IMG/VR virus record: IMGVR_UViG_3300028393_001967
DNA from: a virus
Length of the DNA stretch: 64,000 bases
Direction: 5' to 3' (one strand)
Below the pieces are notes generated by a model, which made no database searches, was not told the DNA's origin, and saw only the letters and a program-made list of their open reading frames with translations. A program made the translations under genes and the position numbers. Of the stretch, positions 15,640 to 39,496 are shown in pieces (positions within the stretch are counted from its first letter, which is position 1; every line of letters starts with the position of its first letter).

Positions 15640-16180
15640 CTTCATTTGCGACCTTGTTGGTTCTACTGTACACTGTATAGACATATACACATAGTACAGC
15701 GAAACACAAGGTTTGCAGGCCAGTTAACTTTCTGCAGGGTAAGCATCTGATGTGTGTGCCGATGCCCAATTCTTTTCGTTCGCAAAAGACTTCTAACTCA
15801 CTACCTCAAGCCACGATTTGAGATGCCTAATAAACGCCAGTCCCACGACTGTTCACGTTTGAGTTGTCGTAAAAAGGTTGTCAAATAGCAATATTAGAAT
15901 AAGGGTGCGTCAGTGCCTTTAGAATTTCAATACATTATATGCGTCCAATGACACGGAGGACGCTTAAAAATCGCCGCAGGTCTGGTAAGGGTCGAGCCAA
16001 ATAATGTGAAGTTTATAAACACCTGCTGTCTAAATGAACGAAAGCAACTCAGATGAGAACCTTCTTTATGGCACCACTAACCTGGTGTCATACTCACTCT
16101 ACAATCTAGATGAATTTAAATTCAGTTCAATAATTGCCCGAGCGTGAGCGATAGGGCGGTTGAACTTGTTCAACCTTTAT
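15640..16180. other. ~540-nt non-coding, hairpin-rich region (structured RNA or origin)
   Basis: No credible ORF; multiple inverted repeats. Confidence 0.45.
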
Positions 16181-16197
16181 TGATACTAAATATTTGT

Positions 16198-18255
16198 ATG
16201 TTTAAAAAACTCTTACTCAATCCTTGGACTGCTTTAATTACCCTTGCTATAATATTATCCGTTAGATTTTATGATCCTTCCTTTGTAGAATCTGTTAGAT
16301 TACGCTACTTTGATCAGTTGGTGACTAGTCAAGACAAAGTGGATATTCCCGTTAATGTCGTACACATCGATGAATCAGCTTTAGACAAATATGGGCAATG
16401 GCCTTTCCCCCGAGATTATTATGCCAACATCATTAAGGATTTGTATGCCCGTGATGCAGGGCTAGTTGTATTCAATGTACTAATGCCAGAAGCAGACAGA
16501 TTTAAACAAGATTCAGTATTAGCTAGAACTTTACAAACACATCCAACTATATTGCCTACATTGGGCAGTCAAAAACAAAAGAACACAGATCACGGCAGCG
16601 CCATACAAGTGATTGGGTTGGATCCTGCTGGCCGAGTAGTTGAGTACCCAGGACTTATTTCCAATGTTGAACCACTTGAATCATTGGCAGCAGGCGTTGG
16701 TATTGTAAACACATTTCCTGAAGTGGATGGCGTTGTTCGCCGTATGCCGCTTGTTATACTGAGCAATGGATCTTTACATCCTAGCCTAGCATTGGAAACT
16801 ATGCGTGTGGCTGCTGGTGACATTAAGATACAGGCTAAGATTGACGAAGAAGGAATTGCAGCCCTACGTATTCCCAAAGTTGGAAAGATCCCTACAGATG
16901 GATTAAGCCGTGTTTGGGTTGATTGGAGTCAAACTCCTAAAGAATATAGCCTAACTGAATTACCTAAATCATTTAATCACGAAATTGTCATTGTGGGTCT
17001 TAGTGCTGCTGGTCTAGTTAATCCTGTAGCAACATCCAAAGGCGAGATATGGCCACAAAACTTGCAGGCCGCTGCTATTGGAACAATCCTTAGTGGCAAA
17101 ACTATCCTACGTCCAGATTGGGCGGACACTGCGGAATTGGCTGCATTGTTTGTAATCAGTGTTATTTTATTATTTTTAACGAGGTGGACCTATGTCGGAC
17201 TTTCAGCAATGGTTATATTGGCAGTCAGTGGTGCTATTTTACCTTACTATCTTTATAGTCATTGGTTATTCCTTTTCGATGCCACTGCCTTAACAGCAGG
17301 TATCGTATTAGTATCGCTACACGCTTATGGTGTTAAGTTTGTAAGCGAGTTCTTACAAAAACAACAAATTAAGAAACAGTTTGGCAGTTATCTAAGTCCA
17401 GACTTGGTTGCTAAACTGGTTAAAGATCCTAGCCTATTAAAACTGGGTGGAACAGAACAAGATCTTACTATCCAGTTTAGCGACGTTCGCGGCTTTACTA
17501 GCATCAGCGAGCACTATGGCAAGGACGTTCAAGGGCTTACTAAAATTATGAATCGTTATATGACTGTAATGACACGAGTAATTTTAGAAAACGAAGGCAC
17601 ATTGGACAAGTACATTGGTGATGCTACGATGAGTTTTTGGAATGCCCCATTAGACAATCACAAGCACGCCAAAGACAGTGTTAGAGCAGCATTAGAAATG
17701 CTAGATGCAGTAAAGGTGTTTAATGATGAAATTGCTAAAGAAGGTGTACCACCTTTTGGTCTTGGTATTGGTTGCAACACTGGCGTTGTCGTTGTTGGTA
17801 ATATGGGCGGCGAGCAACGTTTTGATTATACTTGTCTCGGCGATGCTGTTAATTTGGCTTCCAGACTTGAAGGCCAAAGCAAGAACTACGGCGTACTCCT
17901 TGTTATCGGACCAGAAACAGCAGCCAGATTAGATGATGAATTCTTTGCTATTGAACTTGACTGTATAGCAGTTAAAGGCAAGACGGAAGGAGTAACAATC
18001 TTTACTGCTTTCCGTAATCCAGATGCTGGTGCAATGGTGGATTATATTTCTTCCCGTGAGCGTCACGAACTAATGTTGGCTCACTATCGTAAACAACAGT
18101 GGGAACAGGCTATCAAACTTTGCAATGAACTACAAGGTGAGTTTGATGGACAGTTGGATCATTACTATGAACTATGGCTAGAGCGTATTGAAGAAATGCG
18201 AGCCAAAGGATTACCAGAAGATTGGGATGGCGTGTTTAGAGCGACGAGCAAATAA
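16198..18255 (+). CDS. CHASE2-domain class III adenylate/guanylate cyclase
   Basis: GQWPFPR and DGVVRR (CHASE2); TM helices; FSDVRGFT, DKYIGDA, GIGCNTG and GDAVNLASRLE. Confidence 0.93.
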   Translation: MFKKLLLNPWTALITLAIILSVRFYDPSFVESVRLRYFDQLVTSQDKVDIPVNVVHIDESALDKYGQWPFPRDYYANIIKDLYARDAGLVVFNVLMPEADRFKQDSVLARTLQTHPTILPTLGSQKQKNTDHGSAIQVIGLDPAGRVVEYPGLISNVEPLESLAAGVGIVNTFPEVDGVVRRMPLVILSNGSLHPSLALETMRVAAGDIKIQAKIDEEGIAALRIPKVGKIPTDGLSRVWVDWSQTPKEYSLTELPKSFNHEIVIVGLSAAGLVNPVATSKGEIWPQNLQAAAIGTILSGKTILRPDWADTAELAALFVISVILLFLTRWTYVGLSAMVILAVSGAILPYYLYSHWLFLFDATALTAGIVLVSLHAYGVKFVSEFLQKQQIKKQFGSYLSPDLVAKLVKDPSLLKLGGTEQDLTIQFSDVRGFTSISEHYGKDVQGLTKIMNRYMTVMTRVILENEGTLDKYIGDATMSFWNAPLDNHKHAKDSVRAALEMLDAVKVFNDEIAKEGVPPFGLGIGCNTGVVVVGNMGGEQRFDYTCLGDAVNLASRLEGQSKNYGVLLVIGPETAARLDDEFFAIELDCIAVKGKTEGVTIFTAFRNPDAGAMVDYISSRERHELMLAHYRKQQWEQAIKLCNELQGEFDGQLDHYYELWLERIEEMRAKGLPEDWDGVFRATSK

Positions 18256-27078: not shown

Positions 27079-27220
27079 TTGACAACTGTACAGCACTCAT
27101 ATACAATAGAGACTTGTTAGTTAGAAAACACCAGTTTTTAACCAGTGTTTAGAAAAAAGACTAAATAAATTGTCAAAAACATAAAAAGTGCTTGACAACA
27201 GGCATAAATAAATGTACAAT
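27079..27220 (+). promoter_or_regulatory. Tandem sigma70 promoters of the tRNA operon
   Basis: TTGACA-17-TACAAT at 27079 and 27192, each with an A-tract UP element; TAAATA boxes also present. Confidence 0.8.
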
Positions 27221-27274
27221 TAACACATACACTAGAAACAGTGTATAATTTTTAAAGAGAAAACGGAAACTAAA

Positions 27275-27418
27275 ATGCAATCGCAACAAAGACATTTACA
27301 ACTAGGGACAGCAAAACAGCTGGGCAATTGCCCCGCCGTATTGTGGTCTGCGTTTAATATGTCAAGTTATGATCGCACACCAGAGATTACGATCGGGGTC
27401 CGGGAGGACTTAATGTAA
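27275..27418 (+). CDS. Putative attenuator leader peptide (47 aa, all 20 amino acids)
   Basis: MQSQQRHLQLGTAKQLGNCPAVLWSAFNMSSYDRTPEITIGVREDLM; its 3' codons form the antiterminator strand. Confidence 0.65.
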   Translation: MQSQQRHLQLGTAKQLGNCPAVLWSAFNMSSYDRTPEITIGVREDLM

Positions 27419-27444
27419 ATGTAAGTTTACACTAACTCCACAGG

Positions 27445-27479
27445 ACCCCAGGATTAAGAACCCTGGGGTTTTTTGTTTT
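27445..27479 (+). terminator. Intrinsic terminator (attenuator) upstream of the tRNA cluster
   Basis: ACCCCAGG-loop-CCTGGGGT followed by TTTTTGTTTT. Confidence 0.85.
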
Positions 27480-27593
27480 AGCGTTGGTATAGTGTGAAGA
27501 ACAGGTAACGAGGACCTGGCCCCGCACTTAAAACATGGGGCAAACGGGCGGTGGCGAGGATGGCTTATCTTCTTGTAGATAAAAAAATTCGTC

Positions 27594-27721
27594 ATATTAA
27601 AGCAAATTGTTGCACGGGCATCCCTTTGACGGGTGTTGTCGAAGCATAGCTAAACAGTTTGTTTTAATATACACATTGAGCTGACAGGGGCTGTGATGCC
27701 GCAGACAGTGTGTTTAATTAA
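27594..27721 (+). repeat. Two overlapping conserved-stem hairpin elements (family members A and B)
   Basis: ATATTAAAGCAAATTGTT...AACAGTTTGTTTTAATAT and ATACACATTG...CAGTGTGT. Confidence 0.55.
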
Positions 27722-27729
27722 ATAAGTGT

Positions 27730-27945
27730 ATGTCTAATAAACAAAAAGAATATGCTGGTAGGCTATTAAAAATAGCATCCCAGCAGGCACATCACAAACT
27801 ACCCAATGGTTCAAAAGAAGAACTATTGATTTATCAACTGGGTTTTGTTGTTGGAATTTTGTCTAGATATGCACCCAATGATATTACCATTCATCAAGAC
27901 ATTAAAATTCTTGAAGAATATTTAGGTATCAATATTAAAGAATAA
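27730..27945 (+). CDS. Hypothetical late protein
   Basis: TAAATA upstream; 71-aa ORF. Confidence 0.6.
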   Translation: MSNKQKEYAGRLLKIASQQAHHKLPNGSKEELLIYQLGFVVGILSRYAPNDITIHQDIKILEEYLGINIKE

Positions 27946-27947
27946 TT

Positions 27948-28036
27948 GGAGTGTGTTCCCTGTTGCCGGCTGTAACCCGGTAGCCTTTATTAAGCAGGGT
28001 GGCTGGCAAGTGGTTCGATTCCATCACGCTTCACCA
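27948..28036 (+). ncRNA. tRNA-like RNA with Tyr(GUA) anticodon arm but no D-arm
   Basis: 8-bp acceptor GGAGTGTG/CACGCTTC, ACCA end, T-loop TTCGATT, arm GCCGG-CTGTAAC-CCGGT. Confidence 0.7.
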
Positions 28037-28042
28037 ATTTAC

Positions 28043-28118
28043 ATCGCGGTGGACTTCTGGGTTAGGTCACTAGGCTTTCATCCTAGCTAGGCGGGTTCGA
28101 TTCCCGTCCGCGATACCA
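28043..28118 (+). tRNA. tRNA-Glu(UUC)
   Basis: Cloverleaf; loop CTTTCAT; CCA. Confidence 0.9.
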
Positions 28119-28126
28119 AAGATAAT

Positions 28127-28212
28127 GGATGTGTAGGAAAACTGGTAACCCCAGAAGACTGTAAATCTTCCGCCTTACGGCACTGTTGGTTCGACTCCAA
28201 CCGCATCCACCA
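28127..28212 (+). tRNA. tRNA-Tyr(GUA)
   Basis: Loop CTGTAAA; V-arm; CCA. Confidence 0.92.
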
Positions 28213-28220
28213 AAAGTAAT

Positions 28221-28295
28221 GGGCTGATAGTGATAATGGGAGCACAGGGGCTTTGCAAGCCTTTAGTCGGGGTTCGATCCCCCGTCGGTCCACCA
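28221..28295 (+). tRNA. tRNA-Ala(UGC)
   Basis: Loop TTTGCAA; G3:U70; CCA. Confidence 0.92.
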
Positions 28296-28302
28296 AGTTT
28301 AT

Positions 28303-28387
28303 GGATAGTAGTGTCGCTGGGCGCGAGCTGGTTTGCTAAACCGGTCTACTGGAAACGGTAACAGTTCGATTCTGTTGCTATCCACCA
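28303..28387 (+). tRNA. tRNA-Ser(GCU), 8/4 fold
   Basis: 8-bp acceptor, 4-bp T-stem, V-arm; loop TTGCTAA. Confidence 0.75.
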
Positions 28388-28394
28388 AGTTAAT

Positions 28395-28469
28395 GGTCTC
28401 GTCATATAGTGGTTATTATACCGGCCTGTCTAGTCGGATATCGGGGTTCGATTCCCCGCGGGATCGCCA
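28395..28469 (+). tRNA. tRNA-Asp(GUC)
   Basis: Loop CTGTCTA; GCCA end. Confidence 0.9.
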
Positions 28470-28478
28470 AGTTTTTAT

Positions 28479-28553
28479 TGCCGCGTAACTCAGAGGCAGA
28501 GTAATCGCTTGATAAGCGATAAGTCGACATTTCGAAATTGTCCGTGGCAACCA
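28479..28553 (+). tRNA. tRNA-Ile(GAU)
   Basis: Loop TTGATAA; T-stem with a mismatch; CCA. Confidence 0.85.
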
Positions 28554-28558
28554 ATTAT

Positions 28559-28634
28559 GCTCAGTTCGTCTATCGGTTTAGGACGCTGCCCTTTCAAGGC
28601 GGAAAGACGGGTTCGATTCCCGTACTGAGCACCA
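28559..28634 (+). tRNA. tRNA-Glu(UUC)
   Basis: Loop CTTTCAA; CCA. Confidence 0.92.
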
Positions 28635-28644
28635 TGTTTTTTGT

Positions 28645-28718
28645 TGGCGCATTGTGTAATGGTAGCACAACAGACTTTGACTCTGTTAGTCTAGGTTCGA
28701 TCCCTAGTGCGCCTGCCA
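28645..28718 (+). tRNA. tRNA-Gln(UUG)
   Basis: Loop CTTTGAC; GCCA end. Confidence 0.92.
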
Positions 28719-28725
28719 AGTTTAT

Positions 28726-28800
28726 ATCGCGTTCGTATAGTGGAAAATACACGATCCTACGAAGTTCGGAACGGTGGTTCGATTCCATCACGCGATACCA
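28726..28800 (+). tRNA. tRNA-Arg(ACG)
   Basis: Loop CTACGAA; CCA. Confidence 0.9.
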
Positions 28801-28809
28801 AAAATTTAT

Positions 28810-28885
28810 TCCATCTTAGTATTCTCGGTGAGTACCCCCGGCTGTTAACCGGAAGAGGTTGGTTCGAATCCAACAGATGGAGCCA
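28810..28885 (+). tRNA. tRNA-Asn(GUU)
   Basis: Loop CTGTTAA; GCCA end. Confidence 0.9.
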
Positions 28886-28987
28886 ATATCGAAATACACT
28901 GATTGTTTAGGAGTGGGGGATACGAACCACGTTAAACAAATAAGTCTACAAAAGCCTAAGCAATAGCGCAACAGTATATTTCAATAT
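28886..28987 (+). repeat. Conserved-stem hairpin element C
   Basis: ATATCGAAATACACTG...CAGTATATTTCAATAT. Confidence 0.6.
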
Positions 28988-28988
28988 T

Positions 28989-29063
28989 GGGGGCAGCAGT
29001 GGGCTGCGGCGTTCCCTTGCAAGGATCGTGACTAGAAGGATTCGATTTCCTCGGCCTCCACCA
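28989..29063 (+). tRNA. Atypical tRNA-Ala(UGC)
   Basis: G3:U70; loop CTTGCAA; minimal D-loop; extended anticodon stem; CCA. Confidence 0.7.
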
Positions 29064-29072
29064 AAGATAAAT

Positions 29073-29149
29073 GCACTGGTACCAGAGAGGCCTAATGGCA
29101 TGGATTGCAAATCCGTTGTTCGGGGGTTCGAATCCCTCCCAGTGCTCCA
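29073..29149 (+). tRNA. tRNA-Cys(GCA)
   Basis: Loop TTGCAAA; U73; CCA. Confidence 0.92.
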
Positions 29150-29156
29150 AGTTTAT

Positions 29157-29230
29157 GCGGGTATGATGTAATGGTAACCTGAAACCTTGCCAAGGTTTAT
29201 TCGCGAGTTCGATTCTCGCTATCCGCTCCA
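29157..29230 (+). tRNA. tRNA-Gly(GCC)
   Basis: Loop TTGCCAA; TCCA end. Confidence 0.92.
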
Positions 29231-29232
29231 AT

Positions 29233-29382
29233 TTTTGAGATAGACGATGGGATTGAGTCCCTTGTATTCTAGCGCATTGTGCTGATGCGTGACACACCAG
29301 TAGAACTGTACAAGGTCAATATAAACTCTCCCATTCGAGACAAGCCAATGAGTCCTTCAGAAAGATAGTTGGTCTCTCAAAA
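29233..29382 (+). ncRNA. ~150-nt structured RNA of unknown class
   Basis: Closing stem TTTTGAGA/TCTCAAAA; inner stems ATGGGA/TCCCAT and CCTTGTA/TACAAGG. Confidence 0.5.
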
Positions 29383-29391
29383 ACCTATAAT

Positions 29392-29467
29392 GCAACCTTA
29401 GCAAATGTGGTCATTGCGGTCGCCTGAAGAGCGATGGAAGCAGGTTCGATCCCTGCAGGTTGCACCA
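29392..29467 (+). tRNA. tRNA-Phe(GAA)
   Basis: Loop CTGAAGA; CCA. Confidence 0.9.
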
Positions 29468-29472
29468 ATTAT

Positions 29473-29547
29473 GTATCCCTAGTGTTAACGGCAGCACGAC
29501 AGTCTCCAAAACTGCTAGTCAAGGTTCGAATCCTTGGGGGTATGCCA
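29473..29547 (+). tRNA. tRNA-Trp(CCA)
   Basis: Loop CTCCAAA; GCCA end. Confidence 0.9.
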
Positions 29548-29554
29548 ATTTTAT

Positions 29555-29633
29555 CTGTGTGTAATGTCAGCCAGGTCAGACGGCTCGCCTTGGAAGTGAG
29601 AGGTCGCAGGTTCGAATCCTGCCACACAGACCA
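29555..29633 (+). tRNA. tRNA-Pro(UGG)
   Basis: Loop CTTGGAA; CCA. Confidence 0.9.
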
Positions 29634-29637
29634 ATTC

Positions 29638-29712
29638 GCCCTTTTATCCTTAATGGTAGAGGTCCTGTTTTGTAAGCAGGGTGTGTGGGTTCGATTCCTG
29701 CAAGGGGCACCA
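29638..29712 (+). tRNA. tRNA-Thr(UGU)
   Basis: Loop TTTGTAA; CCA. Confidence 0.9.
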
Positions 29713-29719
29713 AACAAAT

Positions 29720-29806
29720 GGAAGATAGGGACGCTGGGCGTCAACCGGTTTCGAAGTCCGGCCCACTCTGCAAAGGGTGACTGTTCGATTCAGTTATCTT
29801 CCTCCA
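29720..29806 (+). tRNA. tRNA-Ser(CGA), 8/4 fold
   Basis: GGAAGATA/TATCTTCC acceptor; ACTG/CAGT T-stem; V-arm with GCAA loop. Confidence 0.75.
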
Positions 29807-29815
29807 ACAGTTTAT

Positions 29816-29905
29816 GGAAGCGTGGCAGAGCCCGGTTTATTGTACCTGACTTGAAATCAGACGTGTCGTAAGGCACCGTGAGTTCGAATCTCACCGCTTC
29901 CGCCA
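29816..29905 (+). tRNA. tRNA-Ser(UGA)
   Basis: Canonical class II; loop CTTGAAA; GCCA end. Confidence 0.92.
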
Positions 29906-29910
29906 TATAT

Positions 29911-30000
29911 GGAAAATAGAAGTGCTGGGCACTAAGCAACTTGGAAAGTTGTTCCACTTGTGATGAGCAGGTGACAGTTCGATTCTGTTATTTTCCTCCA
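29911..30000 (+). tRNA. tRNA-Ser(GGA), 8/4 fold
   Basis: GGAAAATA/TATTTTCC acceptor; ACAG/CTGT T-stem; loop TTGGAAA. Confidence 0.75.
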
Positions 30001-30012
30001 CTAAATAAGTGT

Positions 30013-30756
30013 ATGAGAATACAGGAACTATTGGTTGAAACTGCCGAAGATGATCGAGCTATCTTGAGTCTTGCAGACGCCATTTACAATTATCTTCAGT
30101 CCTACGCTGATACAGAGTTGGACTATGATGAAACTGGCGTGATACACATAGGACGTATAGGTGATCTTTTTGATACTCCTATTGAGATACTGAATAGTGT
30201 GAGACTGGAAATAACACCAGATGAAGCTATAGTGGATTTGGCACGTAGACTATACGGTCGTGCTACTCCAGCAGATAGTCATTTTGGACAATGGGACCCT
30301 ATGAACAAGGCCATAAGCCTAAATGCTGATTATTTGAGTTCTAAACGTATGCGTAATGTTATTGCACACGAACTAAGACACGCTATGGATGATGCTAAAA
30401 GTCTAAATAGGGCTAATCAAAGTACACGTTATCGTACAGCAAGAAGTGTTCAGCATCAAGCAGATCAAGATGGCGCTTATCAAGCACAGCCTGCGGAGAT
30501 CAACGCTAGATTCGTTGAAGCATTAAATTTACTAGTGCCCGTGATTGCCAAACTGAGCACATTGGATTCTACTAGTTTTAGAACTAAGATGACTGCATAT
30601 CTAAACCGTGCATTTGAACTTAAAGACATTGCAGATTATTATCCAGAAAAAACAGCAAATGCTCACTATAGAAGACTGCTTCAAAGAGCTTGGGACTTTA
30701 TCAACAAAGAACTGGCTCACGTGAAATCCCAGTCCTCTGATACTGCTGACACATAA
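30013..30756 (+). CDS. HExxH zincin-like protein, putative virion internal protein
   Basis: CTAAATA upstream; MRIQELLVE; VIAHELRH...PAEINAR. Confidence 0.65.
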   Translation: MRIQELLVETAEDDRAILSLADAIYNYLQSYADTELDYDETGVIHIGRIGDLFDTPIEILNSVRLEITPDEAIVDLARRLYGRATPADSHFGQWDPMNKAISLNADYLSSKRMRNVIAHELRHAMDDAKSLNRANQSTRYRTARSVQHQADQDGAYQAQPAEINARFVEALNLLVPVIAKLSTLDSTSFRTKMTAYLNRAFELKDIADYYPEKTANAHYRRLLQRAWDFINKELAHVKSQSSDTADT

Positions 30757-30761
30757 TTTTT

Positions 30762-30835
30762 AGGTCCTTAGTTTAATGGCAGAACACTGCTTTGACTTGG
30801 CGAAGATGAAAGTTCGATTCTTTCAGGACCTACCA
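30762..30835 (+). tRNA. tRNA-Val(GAC)
   Basis: Loop TTGACTT; weak anticodon stem; CCA. Confidence 0.8.
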
Positions 30836-30891: not shown

Positions 30892-30920
30892 TTGACAACT
30901 GACCATGATAGTTGTATAAT
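30892..30920 (+). promoter_or_regulatory. Sigma70 promoter of the tRNA-Lys unit
   Basis: TTGACA-17-TATAAT. Confidence 0.85.
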
Positions 30921-30951
30921 AGATACTTAAACAAACAAAAGAGGTAACACA

Positions 30952-30981
30952 ATGAAACGTACTAAAGGTGCTAAAATGTAG
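30952..30981 (+). CDS. Lys-rich leader peptide MKRTKGAKM
   Basis: AAGAGG RBS; 3 AAA codons in 9; followed by a switchable hairpin and two tRNA-Lys genes. Confidence 0.6.
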   Translation: MKRTKGAKM

Positions 30982-31046
30982 TGTCAACCGTTGACCCCGT
31001 ATATGGTCTAAGGTTGGCACTTTAAAGACAATTTAATATGCACAAC

Positions 31047-31121
31047 CCACTCTAAACTTTGAAGGTGAAGTCCTGCCTCTTAAGCAGAGAGAACTGAGTT
31101 CGAGTCTCAGAGAGTGGACCA
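31047..31121 (+). tRNA. tRNA-Lys(CUU)
   Basis: Loop CTCTTAA; CCA. Confidence 0.85.
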
Positions 31122-31125
31122 TATA

Positions 31126-31200
31126 CGGGGTATAATTCAATGGCTAGAATAACCGGCTTTTACCCGGTCTATCAGGGTTCGAGTCCCTGTGCCCCGACCA
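31126..31200 (+). tRNA. tRNA-Lys(UUU)
   Basis: Loop CTTTTAC; CCA. Confidence 0.92.
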
Positions 31201-31276
31201 TATAAAAACACATTATACCAACTGACAATACCGTAACTGGGAAACTAAGGTTGTGTTTTAGTGTGTTTCTATATGG
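31198..31276 (+). repeat. Conserved-stem hairpin element D
   Basis: CCATATAAAAACACATTA...TAGTGTGTTTCTATATGG. Confidence 0.7.
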
Positions 31277-31326
31277 TCTTAACAGGAGTAATTACCCTGA
31301 TCCATAATCGGGAGTCATGACCCGAT

Positions 31327-31429
31327 GAACTCGTAGTGATGGAATGGTCAAACATAGGCCTCTTATAGGGCCGGTGGAGTTAAATGCCCACTTGCAGGTT
31401 TCGAAATCCTGCCTACAATGAGTTCGCCA
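31327..31429 (+). ncRNA. tRNA-like RNA with extended bulged acceptor stem and abnormal anticodon loop
   Basis: GAACTC-GTAG/CTAC-AAT-GAGTTC-GCCA; D-loop with GG; V-arm; 9-nt T-loop. Confidence 0.6.
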
Positions 31430-31522
31430 TATATAAACATACTAAAAATACCGTTATATCACAGTTGGTGCGTAGTGCCAACCAAGCGGACAGTTGAGTG
31501 ATAGTAGTATGTTTATATATGG
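31427..31522 (+). repeat. Conserved-stem hairpin element E
   Basis: CCATATATAAACATACTA...TAGTATGTTTATATATGG, a perfect 18-bp inverted repeat. Confidence 0.75.
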
Positions 31523-31596
31523 TGATGTAGCATAGCGGCCAATGCAGCTCCTTCATACGGAAAAGATCGTGAGTTCGAGTCTCACCATCACCACCA
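31521..31596 (+). tRNA. tRNA-Met/Ile2(CAU)
   Basis: Loop TTCATAC; mismatched anticodon stem; CCA. Confidence 0.85.
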
Positions 31597-31654
31597 AGTT
31601 TCATAATGGTTTGAACTCTAAATAGATAAGTACAGTTATAACTCCAAGGCTAAT

Positions 31655-32095
31655 ATGCTGCACCTAATTACTTCTGACACAGATAATTTTTTCAACTTCT
31701 TAAATGAAGATCCTGTTCGACCTTCTATTCCTACAATGAGTAGAATTGGTGCTAATCGAGATATCTTTGTATATCGTGACGAAGAAGGTAGTGTTAAGGC
31801 AATCACTTGTGTAAGTTATCAAGACTTTGTTCCAACAACGGAACAAGAATTGTTTACAGTAAATACTGAACCCAGTGTTGCAGTGTTTTACACCATTTGG
31901 AGTTATGCTCCTGGTGCTGGCCGTTCGTTGATTTTTAAAGCAGTTGAACACATTAAGGAAAACAAGCCATCAATAAAAAGGTTTGTTACATTGAGTCCAC
32001 CAACTGATATGGCACGTAAGTTTCATATTAAAAATGGTGCAAATGTTTTCCGTAGTAATGAAGAAACTGTTAACTACGAATACATTACTGTTTAA
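31655..32095 (+). CDS. GNAT-fold hypothetical protein (malonyl-CoA decarboxylase-like motifs)
   Basis: AVFYTIWS..GAGR.LI...RFVTLSP; TAAATA upstream. Confidence 0.5.
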   Translation: MLHLITSDTDNFFNFLNEDPVRPSIPTMSRIGANRDIFVYRDEEGSVKAITCVSYQDFVPTTEQELFTVNTEPSVAVFYTIWSYAPGAGRSLIFKAVEHIKENKPSIKRFVTLSPPTDMARKFHIKNGANVFRSNEETVNYEYITV

Positions 32096-32096
32096 T

Positions 32097-32171
32097 GGGC
32101 TTTTGGTGAAATGGATATCATAGCGGTCTTCGAAACCGTTGGTGGGAGTTCGATCCTCTCAAGGCCCGCCA
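32097..32171 (+). tRNA. tRNA-Arg(UCG)
   Basis: Loop CTTCGAA; GCCA end. Confidence 0.9.
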
Positions 32172-32174
32172 CAA

Positions 32175-32339
32175 TTAAAGATTGTTGATCCAACGTAGTG
32201 CAGAATTTACGTTGGTAAAGTATTTCATTTCGAAATATGTAGAATCATATGTGTCCTTAACAACGATGCAACATACCCCGTCTAACAAGCATAGATGAAA
32301 TTGTAGACCACTTGGAGTAACGTTGTCATATGTTCTCAT
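32175..32339 (-). CDS. Small hypothetical late protein antisense to the tRNA operon
   Basis: GATAAATA late box just upstream on the minus strand; MRTYDNV... Confidence 0.55.
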   Translation of the reverse strand: MRTYDNVTPSGLQFHLCLLDGVCCIVVKDTYDSTYFEMKYFTNVNSALRWINNL

Positions 32340-32351
32340 AAAAATATTTAT

Positions 32352-32426
32352 CTCGCTGTAGTACAATGGATAGTACCACTCACTCCTAACGAGTTAATAG
32401 GGGTTCGATTCCCTTCGGCGAGACCA
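32352..32426 (+). tRNA. tRNA-Arg(CCU)
   Basis: Loop CTCCTAA; CCA. Confidence 0.88.
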
Positions 32427-32448
32427 AATCAAATTAGACTTTTTAGGT

Positions 32449-32519
32449 GTGACTATGTTGTAATGGTAGCAACCTAGACTGTGACTCTGGTAGTACGGGT
32501 TCGAATCCCGTTAGTCACC
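32449..32519 (+). tRNA. tRNA-His(GUG) without encoded G-1 or CCA
   Basis: Loop CTGTGAC; C73; flanked by ACTTTTTAGG/CCTAAAAAGT. Confidence 0.88.
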
Positions 32520-32533
32520 CCTAAAAAGTTTAT

Positions 32534-32610
32534 GCCCCGTTACGCTAATTGGTAGTGCGGATTCTCTCAAAAGGAGTTGGATGTCTGTTCGAATCAGACA
32601 CGGGGTACCA
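32534..32610 (+). tRNA. tRNA-Leu(CAA), short variable region
   Basis: Loop CTCAAAA; A73; CCA; no V-arm. Confidence 0.8.
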
Positions 32611-32622
32611 TATAAATACACA

Positions 32623-33126
32623 ATGAAACTGCTAGACTTATTACTCGAATCCAATATAGATTCCCTATTAGAAGAATTTTGGGCACAATGTACACCTGTG
32701 CAATTACAATATTATTTTGTACAGGACAACTGCTATGGTGCTAGCCAGGACCTAATGCAGTTTTTAGATAAACAAAAAGGTATTCGTAATGCAGAGATTG
32801 TTCCTATTGGTAGAATAGTAAATGGTAAAAAGTCTATGGGCTGGTTTAGGGCCGATGTAGCAGATACAAGCCTAGATGCATTTACACGAGATGATGTTGC
32901 CAAACTACGTAGTCAAGGTTTAGATCCACGTAAATCTCAAGATCGAGTTGCCTATATAACTAACAACAACCTAACTGAAGAGTTTTGTTGGATTCCACAT
33001 AGTTGGGTAGAAATACGTGGACGTATACTAGATCCCAGCGGTTTCTACAAAGATGGCAAGAGCGGACAGTTTGATCGTATGGTCAAAGATAAAACTAATC
33101 TCACATCTAGATATCAATATTTCTAA
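32623..33126 (+). CDS. Hypothetical protein, putative virion internal protein
   Basis: TATAAATA at 32611; MKLLDLLLE; NCY...HSWVE...ILDP suggests a transglutaminase-like C/H/D triad. Confidence 0.6.
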   Translation: MKLLDLLLESNIDSLLEEFWAQCTPVQLQYYFVQDNCYGASQDLMQFLDKQKGIRNAEIVPIGRIVNGKKSMGWFRADVADTSLDAFTRDDVAKLRSQGLDPRKSQDRVAYITNNNLTEEFCWIPHSWVEIRGRILDPSGFYKDGKSGQFDRMVKDKTNLTSRYQYF

Positions 33127-33127
33127 T

Positions 33128-33202
33128 CTGGCGTTCGTATAGTGGAAAATACAGGAAGCTTCTACCTTCTAAACAGCGGTTCGATTCCGTTACGCCAGAC
33201 CA
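33128..33202 (+). tRNA. tRNA-Arg(UCU), second copy
   Basis: Loop CTTCTAC; CCA. Confidence 0.9.
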
Positions 33203-33212
33203 TATAACCTTA

Positions 33213-33297
33213 GCCCTGGTGGTGGAATTGGTAGACACGCAGCGTTGAGGTCGCTGTGCCGAAAGGCTTGGGAGTTCGAGTCTCCCCCAGGGCACCA
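33213..33297 (+). tRNA. tRNA-Leu(GAG)
   Basis: Class II; loop TTGAGGT; CCA. Confidence 0.93.
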
Positions 33298-33354
33298 AAA
33301 TTAATGATACAAAAAGACATTGACATTCATAGTTAAATACGTATAATAATATAT

Positions 33355-33467
33355 GCGGCTGTGAGTGGAATATAGCAGACCTCCCGCTTGACCCATAGTC
33401 AAGAATGGGGACGGGGCAAGGACATAGTCATTTGCTTTTGCGGGTGCAAGACCTGCCAGCCGTACCA
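33355..33467 (+). ncRNA. tRNA-Leu-like RNA whose anticodon loop is replaced by a hairpin/pseudoknot
   Basis: GCGGCTG/CAGCCGT-ACCA; insert CTTGAC-CCATA-GTCAAG-AATGGG; own promoter at 33320. Confidence 0.7.
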
Positions 33468-33520
33468 GATTTTAAATACTTGTTGACAAGGTGCAATAAG
33501 TAGTGTATAGTAAGTATTAA

Positions 33521-33610
33521 GGAACGGTCCCATAATGGTATTGGAGCGGATTGCTAATCCGTCGAGTGATGAAAGTCGCTTTCTGAGTTCGAGTCTCAGT
33601 CGTTCCGCCA
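33521..33610 (+). tRNA. tRNA-Ser(GCU)
   Basis: Class II; loop TTGCTAA; GCCA end. Confidence 0.9.
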
Positions 33611-33631
33611 TAAAATTTATAAAGAGAAAAA

Positions 33632-33856
33632 ATGAAACCTAATAAGACTTTCAAAATGCGTAGTACAACAAAGACATTAATGGGTTCAATCGTTGATCCA
33701 GTGCAACGTAATCAATTCAAGAATATGATGATCCAAGCACAATTGGCAAGTGAAGTTGTTGTTAAACGTGAACCACGTAATGATAACAAACCTCGTGGTA
33801 ATGCAGGTTATGTAACAAATGATACTGGCACTGCCAGTACTTCATCAGAAGAATAA
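33632..33856 (+). CDS. Small basic hypothetical protein
   Basis: AGAGA RBS; phage-like codon usage. Confidence 0.65.
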   Translation: MKPNKTFKMRSTTKTLMGSIVDPVQRNQFKNMMIQAQLASEVVVKREPRNDNKPRGNAGYVTNDTGTASTSSEE

Positions 33857-33863
33857 AGAATAT

Positions 33864-33936
33864 TGGCATATAGCTCAGTTGGTAGAGCAACGGACTGTTA
33901 ATCCGTGGGTCCCTGGTTCGAGCCCAGGTTTGCCAG
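33864..33936 (+). tRNA. tRNA-Asn(GUU), second copy, no encoded CCA
   Basis: Host-like body TAGCTCAGTTGGTAGAGC; loop CTGTTAA. Confidence 0.9.
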
Positions 33937-33945
33937 CCCTACATC

Positions 33946-34019
33946 GCTCTTATAGTTTAATGGAAGAACACTGTCTTGGTATGACAGGAATTGCAGTTCG
34001 ATTCTGCATTAGAGCACCA
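33946..34019 (+). tRNA. tRNA-Thr(GGU)
   Basis: Loop TTGGTAT; CCA. Confidence 0.88.
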
Positions 34020-34030
34020 TACTTAAACAT

Positions 34031-34507
34031 ATGAACAAATTTACAGACTTTCCAGAACAACCTCGCATTATGACCAATGATGAAGGTGAAAAATACTTTA
34101 ACAATATGGTCAGTCAAATTAATGATTTCAAACCTAATGAAATTATTGCTGTGGCACGTAGCGGATTTAGTTATGCTATGTGGACAGCGCAAATTCTTAA
34201 ATTACCACTAGGTGCATATTGGTCAGAACGTGGTGAATTGATTACTGGCTCTGATCCAGAACGTATTGTGTTTGTTGATGACAACATTTTGTCAGGTACA
34301 ACATACAAGGACACTAAACTGTTTATGAGTCGTTACTATCCCAATACTGAATGGCGTTGGGCAGTACTGTTTAGTGATTGGCTTACACCTGAACTTGTTC
34401 GCAATGAAATTATTCAAGGTGTTCGTTTACCTTACTTTGCTGAAGAACCCATGTGGGGCAGTAAGAAAGTAAGTGTTGATTACGGAGTAAGATTCCGAGA
34501 TGAGTAA
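34031..34507 (+). CDS. Type I phosphoribosyltransferase
   Basis: IIAVARSG and PRPP loop IVFVDDNILSGTT. Confidence 0.8.
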   Translation: MNKFTDFPEQPRIMTNDEGEKYFNNMVSQINDFKPNEIIAVARSGFSYAMWTAQILKLPLGAYWSERGELITGSDPERIVFVDDNILSGTTYKDTKLFMSRYYPNTEWRWAVLFSDWLTPELVRNEIIQGVRLPYFAEEPMWGSKKVSVDYGVRFRDE

Positions 34508-34916
34508 AATTGCTTTTGATTTGGATGGCGTATTAGTTCCAGACTATCACCATATTCCCAACTTAACAATGCAAGAGTTTTATCTACAGACTTTGTATGC
34601 CAAACCCCTGTTTAGTCCAGTTGGCGAGTTTGATATTGTAACTGCACGTTCAGCAGAATATAGGCCCATTACTGAAAAGTGGATTGAACAGTTGGCCACA
34701 CGACCACAAACTGTTATAATGAAAACTGACGATGCTGAAACAGCCGCAGATTTTAAATATCGTATCTGTGTAGAACAAGGTTACACATTGTACATTGAAA
34801 GTGATCCGGCAATTGTTGAAGCAATGCGTAAATTAATTTATGATAATGATTATGCCAATCTTGTAAATTGTAATGTAGTACATTTTGCAGGATTTATTGC
34901 GAGTAGCTTAAAATGA
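34500..34916 (+). CDS. HAD-superfamily phosphatase
   Basis: IAFDLDGVL, IVTAR, K and YIESD. Confidence 0.75.
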   Translation: MSKIAFDLDGVLVPDYHHIPNLTMQEFYLQTLYAKPLFSPVGEFDIVTARSAEYRPITEKWIEQLATRPQTVIMKTDDAETAADFKYRICVEQGYTLYIESDPAIVEAMRKLIYDNDYANLVNCNVVHFAGFIASSLK

Positions 34917-36319
34917 TTATTGATTGCTTTATGTTTTTCAACGAGTTTGATATGCTAGAAGGTCGACTTGAATATCTGTTTGACACTGTTGACTATTTTG
35001 TTATTGTAGAAAACGATCTCACTCATAGCGGAAATAAAAAGCCAATGAATTATGCAAATAATACAGAGCGTTATCGAAAATTTCAAAAGAAGATTATATA
35101 TCTTCCATTGAGTACTGATCATAGTAAGTATGACTGGAAAAGAGTGCCGCCGGTTGGTAGTTTGGATGTAACATCGTATTATGCATCTATGGCAATGGAT
35201 GTTGATCAACGTAATTATATTGCACAAGGTTTAAAACAGTTTAAACCCACTGATATTATTATGATCAGTGACTTGGACGAAATCCCAACCAAGAAAGCCA
35301 TTAAACAAGCAATACAACATATTAACAGTGGCGTGGAAGCGGTTGCATTTGTGCAAGATATGTTTTATTACAATCTTAAACAGAAGCAAACTAATCCTTG
35401 GGCAGGAACAATACTGACTACTAATAAATCAGTTGCTGAAAAAAGCCCGCAATGGTTTAGAAGAAAACGATGGGAGTTGCCTAAAATAATGGATGCTGGA
35501 TGGCATCTAAGTTATTGGATGACTCCTGAGCAAATACAACATAAGATTATGAACTTTGCTCATCAAGAATATAATATTCCTGATATTATTAATCTTGGAA
35601 ATATTGCAGAACGCATCAGAACTGGCAAAGATTTATTTGGTAGAGAAACGTCTACAACATCATACACTGAATTTATTCCTGTAGATAGAAGTAGTTTGAA
35701 TCCTGATTTGCTTTCAGTATTTGCTAAGTTTGAACCTAACCTGAATTATATTCCTCATTACTATGAAAATGTAGAAGGGTGGTTTAATCCTGGAGACATT
35801 GCGTTCTATAAAGAGATAATTGACAAGTTCAGTGGTCCTGCTCACTTTGTTGAGATTGGAAGTTACAAGGGAAAAAGTTCTAGCTTCATGGCTGTGGAAA
35901 TTGCCAACAGTGGCAAGAATATTAATTTTGACTGTGTTGATACTTGGGCAGGCAGTCCTGAACATCAAGCTGGTGGCAATCTAGAAGATCCAGATGTTGT
36001 TAACGACAAAATGTTTGACATCTTCAAACAGAATATGGAGCCTGTAAAAAGTTATTATAAAGCCAAACGTATGTCCAGTTTGGAAGCTGCTACTACTTAT
36101 TTGGATAAAAGTTTAGACTTTGTATTCATTGATGCAGATCACAGTTACGAAGCAGTTAGAGCAGATATCATAGCTTGGTGGCCAAAGGTAAAAAATGGCG
36201 GCATCATTAGTGGCCACGACTATCATATGGGTGCGCCAGGTGTTATGAACGCATCAAACGAACTGTTTGGTTATGTAAGAGTTACTGGCAGTTGTTGGTG
36301 GGTTGAGAAAAAAGTATGA
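34913..36319 (+). CDS. GT17 glycosyltransferase fused to a SAM methyltransferase
   Basis: FNEFDMLEGRL, ISDLDEIP and GWHLSY; then VEIGSYKGKSS, FVFIDADHSY and GGIISGHDY. Confidence 0.85.
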   Translation: MIIDCFMFFNEFDMLEGRLEYLFDTVDYFVIVENDLTHSGNKKPMNYANNTERYRKFQKKIIYLPLSTDHSKYDWKRVPPVGSLDVTSYYASMAMDVDQRNYIAQGLKQFKPTDIIMISDLDEIPTKKAIKQAIQHINSGVEAVAFVQDMFYYNLKQKQTNPWAGTILTTNKSVAEKSPQWFRRKRWELPKIMDAGWHLSYWMTPEQIQHKIMNFAHQEYNIPDIINLGNIAERIRTGKDLFGRETSTTSYTEFIPVDRSSLNPDLLSVFAKFEPNLNYIPHYYENVEGWFNPGDIAFYKEIIDKFSGPAHFVEIGSYKGKSSSFMAVEIANSGKNINFDCVDTWAGSPEHQAGGNLEDPDVVNDKMFDIFKQNMEPVKSYYKAKRMSSLEAATTYLDKSLDFVFIDADHSYEAVRADIIAWWPKVKNGGIISGHDYHMGAPGVMNASNELFGYVRVTGSCWWVEKKV

Positions 36320-37860
36320 CAACTATTCAATTAAAGAAGAAACTTAATTTTGGTGGCCGTCGGGTGGGACTAATCATCCCGCCTAGTCCCTTTCTGCTTG
36401 ACGAACGTGTCTTTGTAAGTCTAGGAATTTTGCGAGTTGCTGCTAGCCTTGAACAACAAGGAGTTGATGTTGGTGTTGTAGATCTCAGTGGTGTAAGTAA
36501 CTATTTGGAAGCACTTGATAGTTACGTTGAAACAGCAGACATCGAGTGGATTGGTATTACCTGCACTACTCCACAATTGCCAGCAGCAGTAAGGGTAGCT
36601 ACCCGTATTAGAAAAATACGGCCTAATCTACGTATTGTGCTTGGAGGCCCGCACGTTACACTAACTTACAGCGCAGTTAAGGTAGAAGAAAAAGCCGGAG
36701 TAATTGATGGTCGTGCTCGTAAAGCAGCGAGATTACTTGAAAGTTATTTTGATGTATTGGTATCAGGAGATGGAGAACTAGCAGTATTCGAATGTTTCAA
36801 ATCTGATTGTCCTAAAATGGTAGACGGTGACGATATGCGTGGTGATTTCTTTATGTCTAATGAACAGTATGAAGAACTTCCCCGCCCTGCAAGACATTTG
36901 GTTGATTTGAATACGTATCATTACAGCATTGAAGGGTTCCCCGCAACAAGTTTGATTGCACAGTTGGGATGTCCATTTAACTGCGGTTTTTGTGGAGGAC
37001 GAAATAGTAGAAGCCTACGTATTATTCGCACCCGCAGTGAATGGAGCATTGTTGACGAAGTGCGTTGGTTATATGAAACATATGGTTATACTGGTTTTAT
37101 GTTTTATGATGATGAACTAAACGTCAATAAAAGTTTTGTCAAATTGATGAACGACATTTATGACTTGCAACAGGAATTAGGTGTCGAGTTTAGACTACGT
37201 GGATTTATTAAAGCAGAATTGTTTACTGAAGAACAAGCGGAAGCAATGTACAGAGCTGGTTTCCGATGGATACTGAGCGGATTTGAATCCGCTGACCCTC
37301 GTATGCTGATCAACATTGACAAGATGGCCACACTGGAAGACAATACTCGTGTTGTTGAAATTGCTCACAAGTATGGACTAAAAGTCAAAGCATTGATGAG
37401 TGTTGGTCATCCTGGTGAAAGCGAAGAAAGTATTATGTGTATTCGTGACTGGCTGATCAAAATGAAAATTGATGACTTTGATTGTACAGTGATCACTACA
37501 TATCCAGGCACCCCATACTATGACCTAGCAGTACCTGATCCAGTAGAAAAAGGTGTTTGGACATACACGCATCGTAAAACAGGCGACAAGTTACACTCTT
37601 ATGAATTAGATCATACTGTAACGGCCGATTACTACAAAGGCGACCCTAATGGTGGTTACACTGCCTATGTGTTTACTGACAATTTGAGTGCCAAAAAGAT
37701 TGTGGAACTTCGCGACCTAGTAGAAAAAGACGTTCGAGCAGCATTAAACATTCCTTTTAATCCAGGTGGTGTAGCAGTAAAGTTTGAGCATAGTATGGGA
37801 CAGGGATTACCAGATTCCATATATCGCGAGTCTTTGGCTCTTGACATAGCAACTAAATGA
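36316..37860 (+). CDS. B12-binding radical SAM protein
   Basis: N-terminal cobalamin-binding-like domain (LGGPHVT); CPFNCGFC; FYDDE. Confidence 0.9.
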   Translation: MTTIQLKKKLNFGGRRVGLIIPPSPFLLDERVFVSLGILRVAASLEQQGVDVGVVDLSGVSNYLEALDSYVETADIEWIGITCTTPQLPAAVRVATRIRKIRPNLRIVLGGPHVTLTYSAVKVEEKAGVIDGRARKAARLLESYFDVLVSGDGELAVFECFKSDCPKMVDGDDMRGDFFMSNEQYEELPRPARHLVDLNTYHYSIEGFPATSLIAQLGCPFNCGFCGGRNSRSLRIIRTRSEWSIVDEVRWLYETYGYTGFMFYDDELNVNKSFVKLMNDIYDLQQELGVEFRLRGFIKAELFTEEQAEAMYRAGFRWILSGFESADPRMLINIDKMATLEDNTRVVEIAHKYGLKVKALMSVGHPGESEESIMCIRDWLIKMKIDDFDCTVITTYPGTPYYDLAVPDPVEKGVWTYTHRKTGDKLHSYELDHTVTADYYKGDPNGGYTAYVFTDNLSAKKIVELRDLVEKDVRAALNIPFNPGGVAVKFEHSMGQGLPDSIYRESLALDIATK

Positions 37861-37920
37861 TGCTATAATTAATACATAGCAGCAAATGATGGAGTTGGCT
37901 GCTAACAAGTTCTTTAAAAA
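37841..37920 (+). promoter_or_regulatory. Sigma70 promoter plus boxB-like hairpin and rrn-type boxA
   Basis: TTGACA-17-TATAAT; TAGCAGC...GCTGCTA; GTTCTTTAAAAA at 37909. Confidence 0.7.
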
Positions 37921-37935
37921 GATATAGTAAATTTT

Positions 37936-38019
37936 GCGAGAGTGGTGGAATGGTATACACAGCAGACTTAAAATCTGCCGCTGAAAGGCATACGGGTTCG
38001 AGTCCCGTCTCTCGCACCA
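37936..38019 (+). tRNA. tRNA-Leu(UAA)
   Basis: Class II; loop CTTAAAA; CCA. Confidence 0.93.
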
Positions 38020-38096
38020 TATATAAACACATTAAAACACGCCCCTAGTAGCAGTAGCGAATCAAGGGTGGAAGGTTGAGTGTGTTTATATATGGT
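38016..38096 (+). repeat. Conserved-stem hairpin element F
   Basis: ACCATATATAAACACATT...AGTGTGTTTATATATGGT. Confidence 0.75.
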
Positions 38097-38100
38097 TTTA

Positions 38101-38225
38101 GTTAGGAAGGTGGGATTAAAGGTGTCCATCCTCTAAGGAGTAGGGCCTGTATGTAATACAGGAAGTATTAGGTACCCCGTAACTGGTAAGGCCGACATCC
38201 CTTTTAGCGTAAAAGCACACCTAAC
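38101..38225 (+). ncRNA. ~125-nt structured RNA of unknown class
   Basis: Closing GTTAGG/CCTAAC; GGGAT/ATCCC; CCTGTAT-GTA-ATACAGG. Confidence 0.45.
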
Positions 38226-38234
38226 ATTTTATTT

Positions 38235-38311
38235 GTCCCGTTCATCTAGTGGCCAAGGATAGTATCCTTTTCGGGATATTCACAGAGGTTCGACTCCTCT
38301 ACGGGACGCCA
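38235..38311 (+). tRNA. tRNA-Glu-like gene with an 8-nt anticodon loop
   Basis: Glu-type body; arm GTATC-CTTTTCGG-GATAT; GCCA end. Confidence 0.7.
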
Positions 38312-38324
38312 TATAGTTTTTATT

Positions 38325-38416
38325 GCCAGCGAGACTTGGAAGTCAGAGAGGTCTTATAAGCCTTTTAGCGCCAGATTAGCGTTCTTGAGTGGGTCCGATT
38401 CCCACCGCTGGTACCA
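38325..38416 (+). tRNA. Atypical tRNA with UAU anticodon (Ile-like), long V-arm
   Basis: 1-nt acceptor/D linker; 4-nt D-loop; 6-bp anticodon stem; loop CTTATAA; CCA. Confidence 0.7.
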
Positions 38417-38418
38417 AG

Positions 38419-38651
38419 TTTTGTAGTGTTAGCAAGAGAATGTCACGCTATACGGTATTCTTCGAAGGTACTGTATAGTAGAAGGCAAGCGGGTTCGATG
38501 CCCGGCTGGTCGCTTGAGTGGGACCGGCGATAGATGGAATCCACGCTGGACCGGTATCCCAAGTAACAAGTCCTGGAAGAACTCGACGTAAGGAAGTCCG
38601 GCTCTGTACGTCTAAACACTAGTGATAAACCTGAGGACACTAGACTACAAA
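38419..38651 (+). ncRNA. ~230-nt structured RNA of unknown class
   Basis: Closing stem TTTGTAGT/ACTACAAA; long UUCG hairpin; T-loop-like CGGG-TTCGATG-CCCG. Confidence 0.55.
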
Positions 38652-38720
38652 TTCATTATTTCGTTCTTGCTATTGACGCACAATAAATATTGTGTTATAA
38701 TAGTTTTTTAGTTAGTATTT

Positions 38721-38803
38721 GCGCTGGTGGTGGAATGGTAGACACGCTGGTCTTAGAAGCCAGTGCCTAGTGCGTGAGAGTTCGAGTCTCTCCCGGCGCA
38801 CCA
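38721..38803 (+). tRNA. tRNA-Leu(UAG)
   Basis: Class II; loop CTTAGAA; CCA. Confidence 0.93.
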
Positions 38804-38834
38804 CAATTTTGTTTAACATTTATAGAAAGTACTT

Positions 38835-39244: not shown

Positions 39245-39245
39245 T

Positions 39246-39416: not shown

Positions 39417-39421
39417 ACACG

Positions 39422-39495
39422 GCCCTACTAGTACAATGGTAGTACACTGGTTTTGTAATCCTGTGATGGCAGTTCGATTCTGTCGTGGGGCACCA
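39422..39495 (+). tRNA. tRNA-Thr(UGU), second copy
   Basis: Loop TTTGTAA; two mismatches in the anticodon stem; CCA. Confidence 0.8.
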
Positions 39496-39496
39496 A

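Follow-up and report, generated by a model that had tools for sequence, protein, structure and literature searches.

What does a short reading frame that spells out all 20 amino acids do between tandem promoters and an intrinsic terminator at the head of a phage tRNA array? The question is raised by a stretch of 64,000 nucleotides (IMG/VR virus record IMGVR_UViG_3300028393_001967; hereafter the window), which was judged to be phage DNA by its gene content, is assigned to an uncultured jumbo phage, and whose relatives are found on contigs that reach 340–360 kb. Two tandem sigma70-type promoter-like sites are predicted on the + strand at 27192–27220 and 27220–27249 (each scoring 11/12), where the initial annotation had placed them, and a third, distal site of the same score is located at 27079–27107. 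They are followed on the same strand by an ORF of 47 codons (27275–27418), a terminator with its stem at 27445–27469 and a total of 43 tRNA genes called by ARAGORN plus a tmRNA, in agreement with the ~40 tRNAs estimated earlier. At least one promoter scoring 11/12 or more lies within 250 nt of the leader ATG in 58 of 61 representative homologues. Matches to the motif TAAATA, which we take to recall the late promoter of phage T4, are present at 27205 and 27162 on the + strand as possible late promoters, and the motif is found at most 150 nt upstream of the leader in 47 of 58 homologues. Over the whole window, TAAATA occurs 33 times on the + strand and 11 times on the − strand, often directly 5' of start codons; judged by this placement, its copies at 27718, 30001, 31618, 32612 and elsewhere are probable T4-like late promoters.

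When IMG/VR was searched with nothing but the terminator sequence, 92 distinct loci with sufficient DNA on their upstream side were obtained, and in 90 of these an ORF of 33–56 codons ends 12–45 nt upstream of the terminator; at least 19 amino acids are encoded in 87 of the loci and all 20 in 78. The terminator scan, a peptide-based scan and a variant-terminator scan together yielded 131 distinct leaders of 30–53 codons with a median identity of 37.5%. They share one order, namely promoter, ORF, antiterminator/terminator and tRNA array, so that the layout which the initial annotation proposed to look for in relatives is conserved ahead of their tRNA arrays. A short conserved ORF sitting between a promoter and an intrinsic terminator is the arrangement of an attenuator. 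The array follows in every homologue with enough sequence, usually 200–1200 nt further on, and its order is freely shuffled.

Neither blastn nor tblastn gave a match to the element in GenBank phages. The pattern is also absent from the cultured Ralstonia jumbo phage RsoM2USA, which has ~42 tRNAs and shares an NAMPT gene with the window phage, no equivalent leader being seen before its tRNA clusters. The NAMPT gene of the window forms an NAD salvage pair with a cytidyltransferase/NUDIX gene at 45070–47525, and an adenylate/guanylate-cyclase-like protein encoded at 16144–18255 is shared with the phages Melnitz and HTVC008M. Among 185,579 prokaryote genomes there was one true match, seven others being due to chance. 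It is a complete leader and attenuator at the end (5700–5950) of a 6-kb contig of a Polynucleobacter MAG (L298), which is probably mis-binned phage DNA and gives a weak hint of a betaproteobacterial host.

The leader ORF has no match to a Pfam family. A recount of the window leader confirmed all 20 amino acids and 37 distinct codons, 32 of them among codons 10–45, the amino-acid set being complete at Ile38. His7, Cys19, Trp24 and Tyr32 are each the sole codon for their amino acid. All 20 amino acids are present in 111 of the 131 homologous leaders and an internal Met in 127, while the complete set occurs in 3.7% of phage-protein segments of 47 residues and would occur in 12% under uniform amino-acid use. 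Shuffling the columns of the leader alignment gave 25 ± 4 complete leaders against the 111 observed (n = 131). Because the relatives are not independent, the columns were also simulated along the tree, each under an individual profile, rate and root state, which gave 25 ± 9 complete leaders and a maximum of 55 in 300 runs. In 53 disjoint close pairs of leaders, counted in both directions, residues present as a sole copy changed at half the rate of multi-copy residues (91/712 versus 1076/4126), and 89 of the 91 changed sole-copy residues were present elsewhere in the partner, 70 of them at a distance of at least 4 columns where 35 were expected. Rare residues are mostly single copy in the leaders, and single-copy residues such as Cys relocate rather than disappear. 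Cys is spread over 16 alignment columns, none above 14%, and on the tree it shows at least 47 changes of position (a count inflated by alignment noise) and two changes of presence or absence. Even 35-codon versions retain all 20 amino acids. At least one amino acid is missing in 20 of the 131 leaders, mostly divergent ones, and the signal is weaker among the most divergent, where 6 of 16 leaders at the 40% cluster level are complete and 12 of 16 have at least 19 amino acids. Completeness is under selection in these leaders, and the pattern, as read from the alignments, is the signature of a constraint on composition and not of a protein.

The leader had been described as a pan-codon one, of which the strict part is that one codon per amino acid is kept; codon diversity is modest and some codon classes are missing. 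The 37 distinct codons of the window leader compare with 32.7 expected under its own codon usage (z 2.2), the excess over uniform synonyms being smaller (z 1.2), and the homologues, given their peptides, have 34.3 distinct codons where uniform use predicts 33.5 and phage usage 31.8. Diversity above the codon-usage expectation, which had been put forward as a check, is therefore present to a modest degree. The codons TCG, AGA, CTA, GGG, CCC, GCG, ACG and CGG are indeed scarce, at 1.6–12.9 per 1000 in the window's genes against a mean of 16.4. Coverage of tRNA decoding classes lies above expectation in 60–62 of 64 representatives, which are not independent samples, and 28–31 of 32 coarse decoding classes are covered in most leaders. 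Under-covered across the leaders are CUY, GUY, ACY and CGG; the window leader is without the ACY, CUY and AUA classes. Fine isoacceptor classes are not strictly kept: of 427 singletons that changed, 249 were lost. NNU seemed to be preferred in two-fold boxes, an effect that vanished once shared ancestry was collapsed (68% versus 67%), while avoidance of NNU in four-fold boxes persisted (19% versus 38%) and may partly be due to an RNA stem within the ORF. This long irregular stem-loop is placed by the minimum-free-energy fold at 27277–27378 on the + strand and includes the hairpin 27322–27333; its mean pair probability is 0.2–0.5 across homologues, and the RNAalifold consensus did not recover it. 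According to the fold, it is possibly a pause or insulation element, and it may explain part of the codon conservation. The codon counts support the view that selection acts on amino-acid completeness together with a partial spread of isoacceptors, and not on every codon. We consider it a tentative and rather doubtful extension that the leader, with ambiguously decoded NNU codons avoided in four-fold boxes, samples nearly every host isoacceptor as a gauge for counter-defence, in which case cleavage of any one tRNA by a host anticodon nuclease would turn on the array and the structured RNA that precedes it, the latter having a part in the response.

The region 27250–27490 folds at z = −3.7 relative to shuffled sequences, and two alternative structures can be drawn in it on the + strand. 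The terminator consists of the stem at 27445–27469 with a 9-nt loop and a U-tract at 27469–27479 (−15.6 kcal/mol); the first terminator scan overlooked this hairpin because it allows loops only up to 8 nt. The antiterminator (27395–27449; −24.7 kcal/mol) is formed by pairing of 27395–27401 with 27443–27449 and a GGAG/CUCC extension, and folding places inside it an inner hairpin over the stop codon (27411–27434) which was absent from the initial annotation. Both structures use 27445–27449, five bases of the left arm of the terminator, and are mutually exclusive as had been proposed.

Compensatory pairs in relatives, which had been named as a further check, are found at two antiterminator pairs. 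At one of them the homologues have C-G in 113 cases, U-A in 14, U-G in 3 and C-A in none, with 9 parsimony changes, and at the other G-C in 82, A-U in 31, G-U in 9 and A-C in 4, with 24 parsimony changes; five other antiterminator pairs are invariant by construction of the homologue search. Since RNAalifold found no structure except the terminator in the gapped alignment, the counts of antiterminator pairs were anchored on motifs. Among the homologues the antiterminator strand falls into each of the three reading frames (36/21/7), indicating a constraint on the RNA, and a close relative with 84% peptide identity (L309) combines a C-G to U-A double change with a different frame. The antiterminator also contains a Shine-Dalgarno-like GGGAGG (27402–27407, + strand), 5 nt before the last sense codon. 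A duplex with the anti-Shine-Dalgarno sequence of −4 kcal/mol or below precedes the leader end in 62 of 64 homologues as compared to 15% of ordinary gene ends, and the start site is weak by the same threshold, which it reaches in 11 of 64. The terminal sequence may keep the ribosome in place when it has reached the stop codon, a role that can only be suggested because the same bases pair in the helix.

How the position of a ribosome could decide between the two structures was modelled by folding the window transcript without the terminator's right arm, with an assumed footprint that extends from −15 to +12 relative to the P site. With a ribosome stalled at A-site codons 2–38 the antiterminator forms with a probability of ~1, and at codons 39–47 with a probability of 0. 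The earlier claim that a stall at almost any codon frees the antiterminator therefore holds in this folding, at the assumed footprint, for codons 2–38 and not for 39–47. Ile38, the twentieth amino acid, is the last stall position that leaves the antiterminator free, the 38/39 boundary depending on the assumed footprint. The last new amino acid precedes the antiterminator strand by 7 nt or more in 81% of complete leaders, as compared to 16% of shuffled ones (a shuffle partly confounded by tail composition); the mode of this distance is 10–12 nt, approximately the ribosome's downstream edge, and residues in the leader tail nearly always recur upstream. At full-length equilibrium the mean terminator probability in the homologues is 0.36 for stalls at least 4 codons upstream and 1.0 within two codons. 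In the window the same equilibrium gives a terminator probability of ~1 for stalls at codons 8–17 and 32–38, so the model needs a kinetic head start for the antiterminator, based on a presumed order of folding. When the ribosome has reached the stop codon, the antiterminator still has, under the assumed footprint, a probability of 0.6 on average in the homologues and 0.17 in the window. For naked RNA the value is 0.64 at equilibrium and 0.97 before the right arm exists. Folding revealed no protector helix, so that untranslated RNA favours the antiterminator and any uncoupling of translation would switch the element on. Given the assumed footprint and co-transcriptional order, the geometry lets the ribosome position choose the structure, as in an attenuator.

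We propose that host RNA polymerase would start at the tandem sigma70 promoters and that a coupled ribosome would translate the leader. A ribosome that has passed codons 2–38 on time would cover 27395–27407 and block the antiterminator; the terminator would then form and transcription would stop near 27477. Upon a stall at codons 2–38, or failure to initiate, 27395–27401 would pair with the left arm of the terminator before its right arm has been transcribed, and the polymerase would continue through a structured RNA into the first block of tRNAs. The locus is most likely a ribosome-dependent transcription attenuator that gauges the supply of every aminoacyl-tRNA type, the leader peptide being a by-product as part of the same reading. 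A complete 20-amino-acid leader before a switchable stop at a tRNA array would thus probably provide more tRNA upon slow decoding of any amino acid. Translation of the ORF, its coupling to transcription and the switching are what we infer from this arrangement, as is the physiological trigger, for which destruction of host tRNAs, starvation or an overload caused by phage translation are candidates.

The first product of read-through in the window is a conserved multi-stem structured RNA of ~220 nt (27490–27713, + strand), which the initial annotation did not list. Its motif is present in 111 of 129 homologues with many compensatory pairs, and the window copy has no Rfam match. It is composed of a hairpin with an AACG(A/C)G loop, a hairpin with a CAC...AAACA loop, a GGGCGG linker and long closing stems, and by eye the CAC...AAACA loop could form a pseudoknot with the 5' end. 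The RNA might serve as a processing signal, cause antitermination in the manner of put, or act in trans. It is followed on the + strand, at 27718–27945, by a TAAATA motif and a 71-aa ORF (27730–27945) which is absent from the close relative L309. A protein of ~55 aa, absent from the window, comes directly after the terminator in 66 of 111 relatives (for example L170:3222–3395); Lys and Arg are invariant in its LIxxKxxR motif, and it has no PHROG or Atlas match.

The first tRNA block (27947–30835, + strand) contains 20 ARAGORN tRNAs and two genes missed by ARAGORN in its default setting, a tRNA-Tyr(GUA)-like gene with a shortened D-arm region (27947–28033) and a tRNA-Ala(UGC)-like gene (~28990–29062), and it covers 16 amino acids. 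No + strand consensus promoter scoring at least 10/12 was seen before the end of this block, and no terminator-like site between 27480 and 32730. The rest of the array (30892–44311, + strand) comprises 23 tRNA calls, a GOLLD RNA and a permuted tmRNA, and has its own sigma70 promoters, predicted at 30892, 33320, 33483, 37841 and 38673 on the + strand, which would serve about half of the window's tRNAs. The Lys, Met, His and Leu tRNAs are located beyond the promoter at 30892. The idea that a stall switches on the replacement tRNA set can be retained for the first ~22 tRNAs, which lie before 30892, but the rest stand behind promoters of their own. A late promoter at 27718, possible from its motif, would bypass the switch. 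With the next promoter at 30892, the switch would gate part of the array during part of the infection cycle. The GOLLD RNA (41458–41922; Rfam RF02032, 202 bits) has an embedded tRNA-Lys call, and the tmRNA (43753–44311) is of the two-piece type with a 10-residue tag ending in ALAA. The segment 38235–38416 holds one tRNA call without assignment and one tRNA whose anticodon is UAU; of 28 related arrays, 12 also contain Ile-TAT tRNAs. The window also encodes an RNA ligase (55349–56368) that could repair cut tRNAs.

Several other readings of the locus have to be weighed. The same switch might have the adjacent structured RNA, with the ~55-aa protein, as its real output while the tRNAs are mostly transcribed from their own promoters. 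The frequency with which this RNA and the small ORF follow the terminator agrees with such an output, as do the internal promoters of the window and the 14 of 60 homologues with a strong promoter between the terminator and the first tRNA. The other 46 and the window have no strong sigma70 promoter there, nothing terminator-like separates the switch from the first tRNA block, 18 homologues without the RNA motif keep leader and tRNAs, and a full set of tRNAs is what a sensor of all amino acids would suit; we therefore regard this reading as unlikely. The leader could alternatively be a generic sensor of translation rate or coupling that responds to ribosome shortage, antibiotics or a block of initiation, with its diversity being incidental. 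Absence of a protector helix is what such a sensor predicts, because naked RNA forms the antiterminator, but a timer needs no 20 amino acids and completeness has survived dozens of relocations. Generic sensing is probably an added property rather than the selected one, and as the whole explanation it is quite improbable.

That the peptide functions as a protein, or arrests the ribosome as a nascent chain of the TnaC type with an invariant Trp followed by DRTP, is suggested by the presence of Trp in 64 of 64 leaders within 2 columns, by a conserved DRTPE motif and by a dN/dS of 0.45. For an arrest peptide a fixed spacing of residues to the stall site is expected, whereas the distance from Trp to Asp varies from 6 to 13 residues, the C-terminus changes frame and the length ranges over 30–53 codons. 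The Trp and Ala/Gly/Pro codons are moreover located in the ORF's RNA stem, a Pfam match is missing, and a protein would not trade its Cys between 16 columns, which leaves only a slim chance for a function of the peptide. A small RNA that is always terminated and contains an ORF by chance, the tRNAs being independent, would account for strong promoters next to a strong terminator, and 5 of 290 small ORFs in the window also contain 20 amino acids. Against the recurrence of the ORF at 90 of the 92 loci found by the terminator alone, the completeness statistics and the antiterminator covariation, such a coincidence is very unlikely.

The attenuator reading can be placed among known leader systems. 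The leader-peptide attenuators hisL and pheL and the multivalent thrL and ilvL contain one to three repeated amino acids and a protector hairpin, which makes a leader terminate when it is not translated. The phage element resembles trp and his leaders in its short leader ORF and its exclusive antiterminator and terminator, and differs from the trp, his, thr and ilv leaders in having mostly single copies of 20 amino acids without codon runs, and in lacking the protector (1:2) helix, its naked RNA favouring antitermination. T-box riboswitches read tRNA charging by binding one uncharged tRNA, with no ribosome involved, and control genes of translation supply by antitermination. Like them, the phage element would tie tRNA supply to antitermination, direct binding of tRNA being the T-box feature; no covariance model of Rfam 15 (T-box, leaders and Weinberg motifs) matched the phage leader at gathering score. 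Constitutive phage tRNA arrays counter tRNA-cleaving defences, as in T5 against PARIS and T4 against PrrC. The window phage likewise supplies replacement tRNAs, and demand-driven control is what we propose for it.

In the trp leader a short ORF is translated, the helices are mutually exclusive, the ribosome position decides between them and ~10 nt are masked downstream of the ribosome (PMC4615214). The trp/his type, which had been taken as the model, is apt as a switch based on ribosome position, but the closest logic is that of whiB7, where the untranslated state is ON. In the whiB7/wblC uORF of Actinobacteria, efficient translation leads to the terminator, while stalling or loss of the start codon leads to the antiterminator and read-through (PMC10274678). 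This uORF senses any encoded amino acid even through one codon, the precedent being a single Trp, and encodes 19 of 20 amino acids in M. smegmatis (PMC10274678). The whiB7 uORFs are enriched in Ala (25–40%), are not kept complete, with several amino acids lacking in M. tuberculosis, and have a transcription factor as target (PMC10274678). By folding, the phage leader follows the same logic, in which translation favours the terminator and stalling or no translation the antiterminator, though no sequence relation was shown between the two. Unlike whiB7 uORFs, the phage leaders are not rich in Ala (~2.7 of 46 residues), they precede an RNA and tRNAs, and completeness itself is selected in ~45 codons of a phage. 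The searchable literature yielded no description of an all-amino-acid leader or of demand-driven control of phage tRNA arrays, and the main text of a catalogue of viral structured RNAs (PMC10690425) does not mention attenuators or leaders. What is new here is that a minimal ORF is selected to contain all 20 amino acids, that the target is a tRNA array and that the carrier is a phage.

The constraint is an unusual one, in that composition is kept while the sequence is free. As proposed, the leader would be a compact sensor of natural origin that responds to a shortage of any aminoacyl-tRNA or to toxins that cleave tRNA. Whether the near-complete tRNA sets of phages serve codon bias or the replacement of destroyed host tRNAs has long been an open question, and it becomes testable with a reporter of 300 nt. 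A feedback switch selected to test every amino acid would mean that, for such phages, the need for tRNA is unpredictable and its supply is driven by demand.
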